From a virus, in IMG/VR virus record IMGVR_UViG_3300025886_000011, positions 10,357 through 74,356 of that record: a stretch of DNA of 64,000 nt. The stretch is one strand, 5' to 3'. Both the position numbers and the translations under genes were made by a program. The notes under the pieces are model-generated. The model worked only from the letters and a program-made list of their open reading frames with translations. It ran no database searches and was not told where the DNA came from. Positions 21,527 to 34,078 of the stretch are shown here, piece by piece (position 1 is the stretch's first letter; every line of letters begins with the position of its first letter).

Positions 21527-21534
21527 AATATATA
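21527..21534 (+). promoter_or_regulatory. Late-type promoter (658-aa protein)
   Basis: AATATATA. Confidence 0.6.
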
Positions 21535-28669: not shown

Positions 28670-30418
28670 ATGTACGCAAATCAATTAATCAACGAGGCCG
28701 AGGTTCAAAAGACCTGGGGCCCTATCATTGAGGAAAGTACTGGTATTACTGAAAAGTCTAAGTTATCTTGGATGTCTAAGTACTGTCACTACCACAATCT
28801 TAATGAGAGTGTATATAATACTGTACACTTAAATCCTAACATGAATACTCAAGGTATGGGTGCAACTGCTTTCCCAAGCAATCCTACTACCATGAATAAC
28901 TTCAATGACACTAGTGCTGCTGGTATGACTGCCGGATCTGGAGACAGACCTTTTTCTTTGTTACCACTTGCTATGCAAGTTGCTGCTCAGACTGTAGGTT
29001 TAGACTTAGTACCTGTTGTACCAATGCAAGGCCCTATGGGAGTATTAACTTACCTAGACTTTGTATATGGTGGAGGTAGAACTACTGATGCAGGTGGAAA
29101 AGTAACTGATTCTGCACCATTACTAATTAAAGCTGATTTAACTTTAGCTTCAGGTGTTGCTGCTTTAGCAGTTGACCAATTAGTATATGCTGCTTCAACT
29201 GCTGCTAACAATGCTGCTTACGAATTAACTTACGTAGGAAAATCTAGAATCGATGGTTATTCTATATTCCGTGTAAGAGGTAACGGTGTTGCTACTGATA
29301 CTAACTTTGCACAAGGTGAAGAAGGATATGAAGCTATTTACCAAGCTATTGCTAACGGTGTAGATTTCTATTCTGATATCGCTACTGCTGTTGTTATCGG
29401 TGCATGGGGAGATACTCCTGAATATGTAAAAGCTTTGGAAGACCATATTACTGGTTTCTCAGGTAACGCATTTGAGGATAACAACCCACTACCTGGTGCT
29501 GCTAATGTACCTGGATTCTTAACTGAATCTATCGACGGTAATGATCCATACCAAAGAGGTGTTGGTGAATCTACCCCAGATAACATTATGGGACTAAGCT
29601 TATTCAATAAGTCTGTTGCTGCTAAAACTTTCCAAGTTGCTGCTGCTGTGACTAGAGAACAAGTTCAGGATTTGAAACAATTCGGAATCGACGCAGTTGC
29701 TCAAGTAGAAGCTGTATTGGTAAATGAATTAACTCAATCTATCAACAAATACATCTTGGATAGAATCTTCAGAAATGGAGCTCAAAATGCAGGAAATATT
29801 AATACTGTTGATGGCTTACAGTTATCTGCTTCTTACGGAACAACTGCAGCTCCTGCTGTTGTAATTCCATTAGGACCTGGAAACGATTCTAATACTAATA
29901 TTAATGCAACTGTTGCAAGAACATTAGTTAATGCAGGTGGTGAAACACAAGGAACTTTACAACGTAGGTTGTATACTAAAGTACTTGCTGCTTCTAACCT
30001 AATTGCAACAAGAGGAAGAAGAGGACCTGCTACTTTCGCAGTAACTTCTGGAGAAATTGCTACGGCACTTCAGGATGTTGCAGGATTCGTACCTTACCCA
30101 CTATCAAATACAATCAACCAAGCTGGTGGATCTTTATATCCAATCGGTGCTTTGGCTGGTGTAACTATTTATGTTGATCCAAACATGGCTTGGACTGACT
30201 ATAGAGTTGCTGTAGGTAGAAAAGGTGATGGTAATTCTCCTGGTTTAGTATTCATGCCTTACTTAATGGCTGAATCTGTTGAGACAATCGCAGAAGGAAC
30301 TATGGCTCCTAAAATCGCGGTTAAATCTAGATTCGCTTTAGTAGACGCTGGATTCCACCCAGAAACAATGTATTACACATTAGGTTTTGAATTCCAAGCT
30401 GGTACTAGTATCATCTAA
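28670..30418 (+). CDS. gp23: Major capsid protein
   Basis: KTWGPIIEE, VVPMQGPMG.L.Y, AVTREQ.QDL, EL.Q.IN..I, YMPY-like FMPY, SRFAL. Confidence 0.95.
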   Translation: MYANQLINEAEVQKTWGPIIEESTGITEKSKLSWMSKYCHYHNLNESVYNTVHLNPNMNTQGMGATAFPSNPTTMNNFNDTSAAGMTAGSGDRPFSLLPLAMQVAAQTVGLDLVPVVPMQGPMGVLTYLDFVYGGGRTTDAGGKVTDSAPLLIKADLTLASGVAALAVDQLVYAASTAANNAAYELTYVGKSRIDGYSIFRVRGNGVATDTNFAQGEEGYEAIYQAIANGVDFYSDIATAVVIGAWGDTPEYVKALEDHITGFSGNAFEDNNPLPGAANVPGFLTESIDGNDPYQRGVGESTPDNIMGLSLFNKSVAAKTFQVAAAVTREQVQDLKQFGIDAVAQVEAVLVNELTQSINKYILDRIFRNGAQNAGNINTVDGLQLSASYGTTAAPAVVIPLGPGNDSNTNINATVARTLVNAGGETQGTLQRRLYTKVLAASNLIATRGRRGPATFAVTSGEIATALQDVAGFVPYPLSNTINQAGGSLYPIGALAGVTIYVDPNMAWTDYRVAVGRKGDGNSPGLVFMPYLMAESVETIAEGTMAPKIAVKSRFALVDAGFHPETMYYTLGFEFQAGTSII

Positions 30419-30443
30419 GAATAAAAACTTATAATACAGTTTT

Positions 30444-30474
30444 AAAAGGTTCGCTTAACGGCGGACCTTTTTTT
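30444..30474 (+). terminator. Rho-independent terminator after MCP
   Basis: AAAAGGTTCGC-ttaacg-GCGGACCTTTT(TTT). Confidence 0.88.
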
Positions 30475-30489
30475 GTCTTATATCAGTTG

Positions 30490-30497
30490 AATATATA
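30490..30497 (+). promoter_or_regulatory. Late-type promoter (389-aa protein and metallothionein-like peptide)
   Basis: AATATATA just after the MCP terminator. Confidence 0.6.
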
Positions 30498-30516
30498 AAA
30501 AAATCAATAACTAGAT

Positions 30517-31686
30517 ATGAAAAGAGTAAAATCATACAATCAATTTATAGCTGAATCTAATAAAGGTGTAGATGAAGGTATCACCGATATTAAAGGTATT
30601 GCGTCTAATCCTATAAAATGGAAAAAGATTAAAAATAATGCTAAGAAGTATCAACAGACTAAAGTTCAGGTAGCTTTAAATAATGTTGATTACGAAAAGA
30701 AGAAACAGGCATCTAAAGGAGAATTAGATAAAAAGACTAATGATACATTAAAAGCTGCAAACGCCGCTAAGAATCAGGCGCTTAAAGATAAGGCTTCTGC
30801 AATAGGTCAAAGAATGAAAGATCTTGCTACAACCGATCCACTAAAAAAGGTTGTAACTATTGCAACAACTAAAGCTAACCTAGCAGCAGCTGAAACTGCG
30901 CTTAAAGCAGCAGACGGTGAAGAATCAAAACAACTTAAGATAAGAATTAAAAAATTAGCAGCAACAGCGGCTGATGCTAAAAAGGATCTTCAAGATTATG
31001 AATCTGATAGTGGAGATAAAGAACAGGTTGAATTACCAGGAGAAAAAGAAAGGGCAGCAGCTGCAGAAAAAGAAAAACTTGAAAAAGAAAAAGCTAAGGT
31101 TGCTAAAGAAGCAGTTGAAGGCGAGATTACTAAAGCTAAAGCTGCATATGATAAAGTAAAAGATGGGGAAGATGAAAAGGCTAAATTACAAGCAGAGATT
31201 AAATTTAAACAAGCTCAACAGAAAAAAGCTAAGTTAGATGCTAATGATGAATTATTTCAAGGGCTAGGAGATGACATTGGAGAAATAATGAAAAAGATAA
31301 AGGCACTTGATCCAGATAGTAATACTGAAACAGAGACCGATACTGATACCGATGTTGATGATAATACTCCTGATGATCCAGGTGCAAAATTAGAAGCTGA
31401 TATTAAAGACTTTAATGATAAAGTAGAGGATGAGAGAACTGCAATGAATAAAGCTATTAAAGATTTAGATCAGGCTAAAAGAGATTTAAAAACCGGTAGA
31501 GGTTCTGATGAAAAGGTTCAAAAATTACAAAAGGCAATTGAAGATAGTAAAGAAGACATTGCTGAACTTAGAAAAAAGGAAGCAGATGCTAAAAAGAAAT
31601 TAGCTGCATTACCAGAATCATTCCAACCGCTTGAAGAAACAGTTTCTGAAAAGTTTAGAAGGTTAATGAATAATGTACAAAAATAA
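30517..31686 (+). CDS. Late K/A/E-rich coiled-coil protein, putative internal head protein
   Basis: Late promoter; N-terminal MKRVKSYNQFIAES leader; highly charged helical sequence. Confidence 0.55.
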   Translation: MKRVKSYNQFIAESNKGVDEGITDIKGIASNPIKWKKIKNNAKKYQQTKVQVALNNVDYEKKKQASKGELDKKTNDTLKAANAAKNQALKDKASAIGQRMKDLATTDPLKKVVTIATTKANLAAAETALKAADGEESKQLKIRIKKLAATAADAKKDLQDYESDSGDKEQVELPGEKERAAAAEKEKLEKEKAKVAKEAVEGEITKAKAAYDKVKDGEDEKAKLQAEIKFKQAQQKKAKLDANDELFQGLGDDIGEIMKKIKALDPDSNTETETDTDTDVDDNTPDDPGAKLEADIKDFNDKVEDERTAMNKAIKDLDQAKRDLKTGRGSDEKVQKLQKAIEDSKEDIAELRKKEADAKKKLAALPESFQPLEETVSEKFRRLMNNVQK

Positions 31687-31694
31687 TTATTAAT

Positions 31695-31760
31695 ATGAAA
31701 TGTGATTGTAAAGTATGTAAATGTGGAACATCATGTAGTTGTGAATGTTGCAACTGTTAA
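31695..31760 (+). CDS. 21-aa, 9-Cys metallothionein-like peptide (absent from ORF track)
   Basis: MKCDCKVCKCGTSCSCECCNC*; fills the gap between two genes (8 nt and 9 nt spacers) with an A/T-rich start context. Confidence 0.75.
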   Translation: MKCDCKVCKCGTSCSCECCNC

Positions 31761-31769
31761 ATAGACACT

Positions 31770-32261
31770 ATGTATAAAGTTCGTAAGATAAACTTTGGAT
31801 GGTATAAAAGGAGGCATGGAATTCTATTGGAGAATCTGCCTCCTTTGAAGCGAAAACTTTTACTAGAAAATAATCATATGAAATGGTTAGATTCTGATGT
31901 AGATGCTTTTGAAATTATATTTAAGGTCGAGGATATGAATGAACATGAAAAGAATCCTAACCGTATACTTTGGAATCCTTTTAGAGAAACTTTTACAAAT
32001 ATTAAAGAATTAGAAAAAGACTCTGATCTTGTTGATTGGAATTGTGGTATTTGTAAAACTGAGATTAAATCAAGAATGGACTCTAAGAAGGTTGAAAATT
32101 TTGTTTGTAATAAGTGTTCTGAATCACATAACTCATCAAATAAAAGAGTTGATCAAAGAATAATAGATTCATCAATCAACTTTACTAAACGCTGTAAAAC
32201 CTTATTAAAAGGTGAACAGAGGGAGTTCATGACTTACATAAGAAGATCATCTAAGGGATAG
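31770..32261 (+). CDS. Hypothetical protein with zinc ribbon
   Basis: CGIC...CNKC. Confidence 0.6.
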   Translation: MYKVRKINFGWYKRRHGILLENLPPLKRKLLLENNHMKWLDSDVDAFEIIFKVEDMNEHEKNPNRILWNPFRETFTNIKELEKDSDLVDWNCGICKTEIKSRMDSKKVENFVCNKCSESHNSSNKRVDQRIIDSSINFTKRCKTLLKGEQREFMTYIRRSSKG

Positions 32262-33041
32262 AGCTTCTTCTATGGTTATTTTTTTAAATGAATCTAATTT
32301 GCTTGTAGGGCATGCATTAAAAATCTCTATACCTTTACCTTTAATATGTTCTTTTAGAATATTAAAACCTGGTAAGAAATGTTTGTTGTAAATGTTATCG
32401 GATGTTGCGTTAATTGGATATCCATCATGATAATGACTAGAGCTTCCAACATTTCCCATATCATAACCTAATAAAACTATTCTTTTGGATCCTAGATGTA
32501 ATGCTAAGTTAATAGCAGCATAACCACTATTCATACCATGGGATAAGGTATTTAAGGAAGTACTTAGTCCATATTTTTCACCTCTCTTTAGTAAGTGAAT
32601 ATCCTCACTCATTTCTCGTCTAGGTGCAATTGTATATTTTAAACCTTTGAAACTATCAATATCTTTTTTATGCCAATTATAAAATCTGCCATCGGTCCAA
32701 TAGACAGCATCTGCGTTTGGATAACTTAAAAGAGATTTATTTATAGCTATGGTTTTTTTATTATTTAGCTCAGACCATTTAAAATTCTTTAATGAAGGAC
32801 CTCCTCCAATAATATACACAGTATCGCTAGCATTCCATATTTTAGTTATTGGTTTAAAAACCGTAGGCTGTTTAAATTTAGGTTGTACATTACTTCTACG
32901 AATAGCTGCAACACTAGCAGGTTTTGAAGGTTTATTTACATGGACTTGTACAGGGCCTCTAGTTATATTACTTTTAACATTACTAGATACAGCCGGGTCT
33001 ACTTTAACCTTTATAACCTTTCGTATTTTTCTAGGACTCAT
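32247..33041 (-). CDS. DUF115/Maf-like (GT29-fold) putative ulosonic-acid transferase with basic N-terminal extension
   Basis: YIIGGGPSL, TIAINKS, NSGYAAINLALHLG.KRIVLLGYDM and IFNAC motifs. Confidence 0.75.
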   Translation of the reverse strand: MSPRKIRKVIKVKVDPAVSSNVKSNITRGPVQVHVNKPSKPASVAAIRRSNVQPKFKQPTVFKPITKIWNASDTVYIIGGGPSLKNFKWSELNNKKTIAINKSLLSYPNADAVYWTDGRFYNWHKKDIDSFKGLKYTIAPRREMSEDIHLLKRGEKYGLSTSLNTLSHGMNSGYAAINLALHLGSKRIVLLGYDMGNVGSSSHYHDGYPINATSDNIYNKHFLPGFNILKEHIKGKGIEIFNACPTSKLDSFKKITIEEALSLR

Positions 33042-33056
33042 TAAATAGATTTTTTT

Positions 33057-33064
33057 TATTTATT
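33057..33064 (-). promoter_or_regulatory. Late-type promoter for the inverted DUF115-like gene
   Basis: AATAAATA on the minus strand, 15 nt before the ATG. Confidence 0.45.
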
Positions 33065-33069
33065 TACAT

Positions 33070-33097
33070 TGAAACAAATGCTATTTTTTCCATATAA
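33070..33097 (+). promoter_or_regulatory. Middle-type promoter (clamp loader)
   Basis: TGAAAC-N16-ATATAA(AAATAA). Confidence 0.7.
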
Positions 33098-33115
33098 AAA
33101 TAAATCAAACTAAAT

Positions 33116-34078
33116 ATGAAGAATATCCAAAATGTACTATTAACAGAGAAGTACAGACCACAATCCTTAGATGATTTAATTACGCCACAGAGAGTTGGGG
33201 AAAAGCTAAGCAAAGGAGTTTATCAACATCTATTACTTCATGGTAGTCCAGGTACTGGTAAAACATCTGCTGCTAAGGTACTGGTAAAACATTTTAAGCA
33301 TCCATACCTTTATATTAATGCGTCAACAGATACTTCAGTAGATGTTGTAAGAAATAGAATTACTGATTTTTGCGCTAATCGTTCTATAATGGATGAGCCA
33401 GGAAAAATGAAAGTAATTATACTTGATGAGATTGATGGTGTATCTGATCAATTCTTTAAAGCACTAAGAGCTACTATGGATCAATTTGCTGTAAACGCAA
33501 GATTCGTTGCAACATGTAATTATATTAATAAAGTACCAGATCCAATTCAATCAAGATTTGAAATGATTGATTTTGATTTTAGTAAAGAAGAAGAAACTGA
33601 AATAATGAAAAGTTACATTATGAGGATTTTTCAAATATGCAAAGAAGAAGGTATTGGGATTGATAAACACGCGGCGGTTGAATTAGTAAAAAGAAAATTT
33701 CCTGATTTGCGAAATATGTTAAATCAGTTACAAGGATTTAAATCACAAGGTGTAGAAACTATAACAGTTGAAAACATTAAACAATTCAGTTCAGTATATA
33801 AAGATATTTATGATCTTGTTATTGATGGAGAAGATCCTGTAAAAAATTATCAATATATGTTATCTAATTATGCAAATAGAACTGATGATGTTTTATCTTC
33901 TTTAGGCGCAGAATTTATAGATTTTATAAAACAAGATAGACAATCATATACACAATTTATTCCACAGATAATTGTAACGGTTGCAAAATATCAGGCACAA
34001 CGGCAACAGGTAATTGATCCTGCAGTATCAATGCTCGCTTGTATATATGAATTACAAACAATAGTAAACGGGGCATAA
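33116..34078 (+). CDS. gp44: Clamp loader large subunit
   Basis: EKYRPQSL, GSPGTGKT, ILDEID, ATCNY and SRF (RFC boxes). Confidence 0.93.
   Translation: MKNIQNVLLTEKYRPQSLDDLITPQRVGEKLSKGVYQHLLLHGSPGTGKTSAAKVLVKHFKHPYLYINASTDTSVDVVRNRITDFCANRSIMDEPGKMKVIILDEIDGVSDQFFKALRATMDQFAVNARFVATCNYINKVPDPIQSRFEMIDFDFSKEEETEIMKSYIMRIFQICKEEGIGIDKHAAVELVKRKFPDLRNMLNQLQGFKSQGVETITVENIKQFSSVYKDIYDLVIDGEDPVKNYQYMLSNYANRTDDVLSSLGAEFIDFIKQDRQSYTQFIPQIIVTVAKYQAQRQQVIDPAVSMLACIYELQTIVNGA

Follow-up and report, generated by a model that had tools for sequence, protein, structure and literature searches.

Metallothioneins are recognised by a low mass, a very high cysteine content (about 15-35%) arranged in CxC, CxxC and CC motifs, and few or no aromatic residues. 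The beta-domain of the vertebrate proteins has 9 Cys that form an M(II)3Cys9 cluster, and the Neurospora metallothionein has a core resembling C-x-C-G-x-x-C-x-C. Plant-type metallothioneins (PF01439, wheat Ec-1) are 60-80 aa long and contain a Cys-free linker. The bacterial SmtA/BmtA proteins (PF02069) are small, Cys-rich metal buffers of the prokaryotic world; SmtA has ~55 aa, His ligands and a zinc-finger-like fold. Nearest in size to the peptide discussed here is the Cu(I) metallothionein type of the fungus Neurospora crassa, with 25 residues, 7 Cys and a Cu6 cluster (PMC7614390, citing Cobine et al. 2004).

We compare these systems with a very short gene found in a 64,000-nucleotide stretch of viral DNA (the window), which is part of an IMG/VR record of 76,973 bp, estimated by CheckV to be ~29% complete. 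The gene and its two neighbours are arranged as follows (positions are those of the window):

30517..31686, + strand, gene of a 389-aa Lys/Glu/Ala-rich, coiled-coil-like late protein; upstream neighbour, its stop lies 8 nt 5' of the peptide ATG
31695..31760, + strand, gene of the 9-Cys peptide; ATG, 21 codons, TAA; product MKCDCKVCKCGTSCSCECCNC
31770..32261, + strand, gene of a 163-aa Zn-ribbon protein (CxxC...CxxC); downstream neighbour, its start lies 9 nt past the peptide stop

The product MKCDCKVCKCGTSCSCECCNC contains 9 Cys in 21 residues (43%) and neither aromatic residues nor His. Its cysteine skeleton is C-x-C-x2-C-x-C-G-x2-C-x-C-x-C-C-x-C followed directly by the stop, i.e. it consists of CxC, CxxC and CC motifs with small polar residues elsewhere. 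The first-pass annotation, made from the letters of the window alone, had described a peptide of 9 Cys in 21 aa with CxC and CC motifs and no aromatics, lodged between a 389-aa late gene and a Zn-ribbon gene; this description is exact at 31695-31760 (+), and the 83-nt gap between the two larger ORFs is filled by the peptide ORF. The downstream protein has a weak DUF4379 treble-clef match and is kept in all relatives examined. The upstream protein is a fast-evolving, low-complexity coiled-coil late protein; its homologues measure 286-389 aa and share 35-89% identity, while the capsid and clamp-loader genes of the same phages are 65-99% identical. A fusion of the peptide to the 389-aa protein by frameshift or read-through was considered and rejected: the frames differ and there is an in-frame stop 7 codons upstream. 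In other contexts such stops are found 3-7 codons upstream.

The small size, the cysteine content and the lack of aromatic residues are all those of a metallothionein, and the likeness can be followed through each of the described groups. The peptide shares with the vertebrate beta-domain the nine thiolate ligands and the spacer residues (K, S, T, N, D, E, G), but the beta-domain, one of the two domains of its protein, distributes its 9 Cys over ~30 residues, and there is no profile match between the two. Like the Neurospora peptide, it is a single, free-standing mini-domain with CxC motifs and no aromatics; unlike it, the phage peptide is shorter (20-24 aa in the family described below) and richer in cysteine (9 Cys, 43%), contains a CC pair, terminates in Cys and is phage-borne. 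No sequence relationship between these two is detectable. Two CxCGxxCxCxxC stretches of Ec-1 can be aligned with the family profile, although the plant proteins differ in length and in their linker. What the peptide shares with SmtA/BmtA is small size and richness in Cys; SmtA is longer and has the His ligands and the fold mentioned above.

Profile searches give a similar picture. Against Pfam PF01439 (Metallothio_2) the window peptide scores 10.4 bits (E 1.3), below the gathering cut-off of 23 bits; the C-terminal Cys domain of this family (positions 63-81) is aligned by 27 of 88 members of the phage family, with a best E of 0.33 that is also below threshold. None of the 88 members matches PF02069 (SmtA/BmtA) or any other Pfam metallothionein family at E up to 10. 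The only match in a profile search of the PDB is wheat Ec-1 (2kak; E 7.4, not significant). Resemblance in profile searches is thus confined to metallothioneins, namely Metallothio_2 and Ec-1 with the shared motif C-x-C-G-x-x-C-x-C, with the reservation that short Cys-rich sequences match one another easily. The initial label "metallothionein-like" therefore stands as far as Cys content, motifs and composition are concerned, but the threshold of a curated metallothionein family is nowhere reached.

The window belongs to a T4-like myovirus, with a Gp23-type major capsid protein (28670-30418), a prohead protease and a gp44-type clamp loader. It has ~30% GC, nearly all of its genes are on the + strand, no tRNA genes were found in it, and its source type is marine. 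Megablast of the region against GenBank phages gave no match; by capsid protein the nearest named relatives are an uncultured 462-kb phage (57% identical) and the Lak phages (~37%).

In order to keep the question of conservation free of circularity, relatives were gathered by the capsid protein alone. This yielded 80 loci, 54 of which also have the Zn-ribbon gene. In 35 of the 54 the spacer is at most 15 nt, the upstream gene running up to or into the Zn-ribbon gene. Another 15 have a spacer of 66-91 nt, and this always contains an intact 21-codon ORF with all 9 Cys; these loci represent 8 distinct DNA versions with capsid identities of 67-84%. The remaining four, all distant, have unrelated spacers of 43-140 nt. 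Decayed copies of the peptide gene were absent from the 54 loci. Synteny and conserved Cys spacing in related phages, the check proposed at the outset, thus came out in favour of the peptide, with 15 of 15 gene-sized spacers holding all nine cysteines. In the two distant relatives L063 and L064, the 140-nt spacer before the Zn-ribbon homologue holds a different ORF of ~40 codons starting MATGRF..., and the junction 5' of the Zn-ribbon gene may be a hotspot for micro-gene cargo.

The pattern of substitutions is informative as to what is being conserved. Among the 8 versions, five of the nine Cys codons vary between TGT and TGC, but none of their 18 first and second positions varies, as opposed to 11 of 22 first and second positions in the non-Cys codons (Fisher p=3e-4). 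The predicted fold of the region is no more stable than that of shuffled sequence (z=0.42), the 8 relatives show no compensatory pairs, and there is no Rfam match. Since RNA structure above background, compensatory changes and an Rfam match are all lacking, selection acts on the peptide.

The density of cysteine is a separate question. Cys makes up 0.8% of the residues in the window's proteins and the peptide ORF is the most Cys-rich complete ORF of the window. When 200 windows of 64 kb were simulated with matching dinucleotide content, no ATG-ORF of 15-40 aa contained more than 7 Cys, and 7 was reached in only 2 of the 200, as compared with 9 in the real sequence. However, off-frame stretches within real genes reach 8-9 Cys per 21 codons, even though these contain stops and overlap genes. 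The original argument that such a density is hard to explain by chance holds against the simulations, none of which reaches 9, and is weakened by the off-frame stretches; because of the latter, cysteine density is suggestive and it is conservation that settles the matter. The peptide ORF is a real gene under selection.

The gene is part of a discrete segment that is present in some phages and absent from others:

31673..31677, + strand, left ATGTA direct repeat (5 nt) flanking the 97-nt segment; from sequence and alignment
31678..31774, strand not applicable, presence/absence segment of 97 nt with the peptide gene; from alignment with peptide-less relatives and junction classes
31770..31774, + strand, right ATGTA repeat, which coincides with the opening 5 nt of the Zn-ribbon gene; from sequence and alignment

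In relatives without the segment ...AATAATGTA is joined straight to TAAAG..., and the stop of the 389-aa gene then overlaps the Zn-ribbon ATG (AATAATGTATAA). A second absence junction, seen in L075 and L076, resembles a deletion between AACCTGTAA and AACTGTTAA. The capsid tree is well supported, and on it the distribution of the peptide gene needs at least five gains or losses. The window's sister L001 (98% capsid identity) lacks both the gene and the 97-nt segment, and L018, which has the gene, is sister to L015, which does not. Because of these at least five changes, and because closest relatives differ in its presence, we consider the gene accessory and mobile; it has been repeatedly lost, gained or recombined. 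It is also dispensable, as most close relatives are without the peptide.

This distribution bears on one of the functions proposed initially, i.e. the supply of metals to the neighbouring Zn-ribbon protein. As 35 of the 50 close syntenic relatives have the Zn-ribbon gene without the peptide, and most members of the wider family sit in unrelated phage contexts lacking a Zn-ribbon gene, the two distributions conflict and this function is unsupported.

The wider family was found by scanning IMG/VR DNA. A first scan with the cysteine pattern alone was swamped by TGY simple repeats; with nine Cys codons, the Gly codon and a terminal stop all required, at least 117 stretches were recovered, with at least 97 distinct core DNAs and at least 86 distinct core peptides. 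Among the matches listed all are free-standing and 20-24 aa long, and the ATG stands 0-3 codons before the first Cys, a placement which was not imposed by the pattern and which gives peptides of 20-23 aa. The family can be written as M-x0-3-C-[ND]-C-x2-C-x-C-G-x2-C-x-C-x-C-C-x-C plus stop, and in an alignment of 88 sequences the window peptide fits every column. High Cys content in CxC, CxxC and CC motifs holds in all 86 distinct core peptides listed; the search pattern itself accounts in part for the invariance of Cys and Gly across the family, while the syntenic orthologues of the window peptide were recovered independently of the cysteine pattern. In a complete scan for copies lacking the stop after the last Cys, the peptide was extended by no more than 1-2 residues and was in no case part of a larger protein. 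The C-terminal residue is nearly always Cys.

The ten variable positions of each peptide are filled, among the matches listed, almost entirely with N, S, T, K, D, E, V, Q, G and I. Only 4 of 774 residues at these positions (0.5%) are F, Y, W, R, H, L or M, as opposed to 26% in the window proteome, and F, Y and W do not occur at all (0 of 774, vs. 10.6%). Core position 11, counted from the first Cys, favours Ser, and positions 2 and 18 favour N or D. Within these limits residue identity is weakly constrained, as indicated by a pN/pS of ~0.63 in the non-Cys codons.

Few copies of the family were found in the cellular genomes searched, a result that applies to these genomes and does not amount to absence from cells. 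The same pattern gave 8 matches in 185,579 cellular species genomes, of which 7 are simple repeats and 1 is true; the true match lies on a Flavobacteriaceae MAG contig, in a context that matches a viral contig. With 2 mismatches allowed, 2 true copies were found in 401 Flavobacteriaceae genomes. One copy in a Flavobacteriaceae genome (L355, G245:C22:2351-2410) has the same nine-Cys spacing with Asn-Lys in place of the Gly-x pair (CNCSQCSCNKTCNCNCCDC), so Gly is not absolutely required outside the phage set. As far as sequence can tell, this is a family of metallothionein-like peptides of 20-24 residues, carried by many unrelated marine phages. The presence/absence cassette and this large phage-borne family are additions to what the first-pass annotation contained.

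The genomic contexts of the family are diverse. In nearly all loci the neighbouring genes are on the same strand, with the upstream one usually within ~20 nt. About 30 of the listed loci belong to the window's lineage, 35 have an upstream small protein (holin-like in L226, the one locus tested) and a downstream FAD-binding protein, and further contexts differ again. The FAD-binding protein is highly conserved, 430-520 aa long (L226:6057-7355 (-) and 34 homologues), contains GAGVAG and GGWSDGKLTY motifs and corresponds to PHROG 12409 'dehydrogenase'; its matches to diverse FAD/NAD dehydrogenases are all below cut-off. We dropped it as a functional partner because a terminator separates it from the peptide gene, the CxxxxC redox motif is absent from it, and it has no counterpart in the window's record (~29% complete, see above). 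In ~30 loci of unrelated context (L226:7355-7475 (- strand), L201:3297-3414 and ~25 others) the peptide gene is followed by a hairpin, a strong intrinsic terminator and then CGTATATTAA before the next gene. The post-stop hairpin has 5 bp; its loop AUUCAUAGC is invariant and its stems covary (GACUG/CAGUC, GUCCG/CGGAC, GUUCG/CGAAC, GCCUG/CAGGC). This array of hairpin, terminator and CGTATATTAA may be an RNA processing or regulatory element.

In the window, the following signals lie upstream of the gene:

30444..30471, + strand, intrinsic terminator after the major capsid gene; upstream boundary of the putative unit
30490..30499, + strand, promoter-like motif AATATATAAA, 18 nt ahead of the 389-aa gene

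The motif AATATATAAA has 7 matches in the window (at 21527, 25032, 26729, 30490, 37261, 45676 and 60697) where 2.6 would be expected by chance; all are on the + strand and each lies 18-27 nt 5' of a gene's ATG. The terminator is the only terminator-like site within 30300-33200. From the AATATATAAA copy, the capsid-gene terminator and the gene spacings of 8 and 9 nt, we deduce a three-gene unit that probably starts at 30490 and likely has the order motif, 389-aa gene, peptide gene and Zn-ribbon gene. The early suggestion of a late operon is thus supported by motif, terminator and spacing alike. A Shine-Dalgarno motif was found in none of the 54 window genes, all of which have A/T-rich leaders like the peptide ORF; its absence from the peptide ORF is therefore normal here. 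Leaders of this kind, A/T-rich and free of Shine-Dalgarno motifs, are a known pattern for Bacteroidota hosts. Taken together, the missing Shine-Dalgarno motifs (0/54) and the AATATATAAA copies suggest a Bacteroidota-type host and a phage-specific late promoter.

In 2 marine RNA libraries there are contigs that run across all three genes, from the 389-aa gene through the peptide gene into the Zn-ribbon gene; one is 436 nt long with 1 difference, the other 1,902 nt with ~93% identity. They are compatible with co-transcription of the three genes, short of proof of transcription or translation. Contig depth in these libraries cannot rank expression, and the parts of the stretch left uncovered in X15 and X16 carry no meaning. 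Both libraries also contain contigs of 166 nt, with depths of 718 and 872 vs. ~7-10 for the window-like phage, that match the peptide ORF only (window 31698-31736). Their loose ends match the upstream region of L195, another phage with its own family member. These short contigs hint at an abundant homologue in the RNA libraries, their depth being no proof of expression.

The best explanation of the gene, to which we assign a probability of roughly 0.6, is that it encodes a metallothionein-like peptide with a single metal-thiolate cluster, made late in infection. It is the metallothionein make-up, the sole profile resemblance and the nine thiolates that lead to this reading. We infer translation, metal binding, the nature of the metal and a benefit to the phage in the following steps. 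Late transcription from the AATATATAAA motif would yield a message of three genes with the ORF in the middle, and translation of the ORF would start at an A/T-rich site free of Shine-Dalgarno motifs, like that of every other gene of the genome. The 21-residue product is too small and too Cys-dense to fold alone, and its nine invariant thiols most likely wrap one cluster instead, either trinuclear of the Zn/Cd type, M3(Cys)9, as in the vertebrate beta-domain, or with Cu(I)4-6, as in the 25-residue Neurospora peptide. The peptide would then buffer or scavenge metal in the cytoplasm, in soluble form, late in infection.

Other readings need to be considered. The most serious is that the peptide is translated but is a thiol-rich effector and not a metal buffer, i.e. 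a quencher of redox stress or electrophiles, an Fe-S or Zn-knuckle adaptor docking on a protein of phage or host, or a peptide that inhibits a host (defence) protein. What speaks for a translated, conserved and free-standing peptide serves this reading equally well. Moreover, an accessory, mobile and patchy gene (at least five gains or losses) is typical of phage host-interaction genes, and the family is placed beside late or lysis genes in two unrelated contexts. On the other hand, no partner gene is common to all contexts, the composition is like that of metallothioneins and unlike that of known peptide inhibitors, and with an odd number of Cys (nine in 19 residues) and no hydrophobic core or surface residues the thiolates would be nearly the sole interface. 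We regard an effector as unlikely, if still worth keeping in mind.

A cysteine-sensing leader is improbable. Here the short ORF would be regulatory, in that ribosomes pausing at the nine Cys codons when Cys-tRNA is scarce would alter expression of the downstream gene. Mycobacterial polycysteine leaderless sORFs, the 'Cys ribulon', lie at the 5' mRNA end and control cysteine metabolism through ribosome pausing and an RNA duplex (bioRxiv 10.1101/834739). Leaders of this type are recognised by a 5'-proximal or leaderless location, a duplex further downstream in which the next start site is sequestered, and cysteine-metabolism genes behind it. The window ORF is like them in being unannotated, very short, packed with Cys codons and immediately upstream of another gene, and the ~30 unrelated phage loci in which a hairpin and an intrinsic terminator precede the next gene have an attenuator-like layout. 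However, the 5' position, the RNA duplex and the cysteine-metabolism genes of the Cys ribulon are not found: the window ORF follows the 389-aa cistron, and as its stop is 9 nt from the next ATG there is no space for an attenuator. The folding, covariation and Rfam results given above also argue against a structured leader. The downstream genes vary with the context and none matched a cysteine-metabolism family, while the promoter-like CGTATATTAA after the terminator resembles the end of an operon. Finally, codon sensing has no need of an exact Cys spacing, an invariant Gly, a fixed length, a C-terminal Cys or a restriction in residue class.

A RiPP precursor, modified for example at the C-terminal Cys, is very improbable. 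The Cys end of nearly all members and the oxidoreductase-like FAD-binding protein downstream in 35 loci would fit, but no modifying enzyme is common to the contexts, the flavoprotein lies behind a terminator and has no counterpart in the window's record, and 20-24 residues show no leader/core architecture. It is hardly credible that the ORF is non-functional, be it a chance ORF or selfish DNA filler with an irrelevant peptide: it is indeed very short, unannotated and dispensable in most relatives, but the simulations, the purely synonymous variation of the Cys codons, the lack of decayed copies and the frame, start and stop kept by a wide family across unrelated phages speak against this, and the conservation pattern effectively refutes it.

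Returning to the metal-thiolate peptide, metallothioneins as such are already known; what is new here, by its sequence features, is a virus-borne, extremely small metallothionein-like family. It had been suspected that the ORF is unannotated and falls far below ORF-caller cut-offs, and this is borne out, as 9 of 10 variants are absent from a collection of 15 billion proteins and the tenth has no name in it. Full-text literature searches turned up no paper describing such a peptide from a phage or another virus and returned generic virome mentions of 'metallothionein' only; two papers on viromes from metal-rich sites mention 'metallothionein' auxiliary genes (PMC12917443, PMC13317609). The family illustrates how conserved coding capacity is missed under 30 codons.

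We tentatively speculate that unrelated marine phage lineages might exchange a ~66-nt gene for the smallest and most Cys-dense metallothionein-type peptide seen so far (20-24 aa, 9 Cys), which would alter the metal economy of the infected cell late in infection; this broader proposal we hold to be possible and no better than that. The natural presence/absence pairs, such as the window and its relative of 98% capsid identity without the gene, are ready-made controls. If the proposal is true, the outcome could be capture of Cu or Zn, detoxification, or metal withheld from the host, and the peptides would constitute a new class of auxiliary gene, nearly confined to viruses and invisible to current annotation. 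Chemists working on metal-thiolate clusters would also gain a minimal natural scaffold of 19 residues with 9 thiols. If the peptide binds metals, phages own a widely exchanged metal-handling micro-gene, and metal homeostasis would join the processes that marine phages reprogramme.
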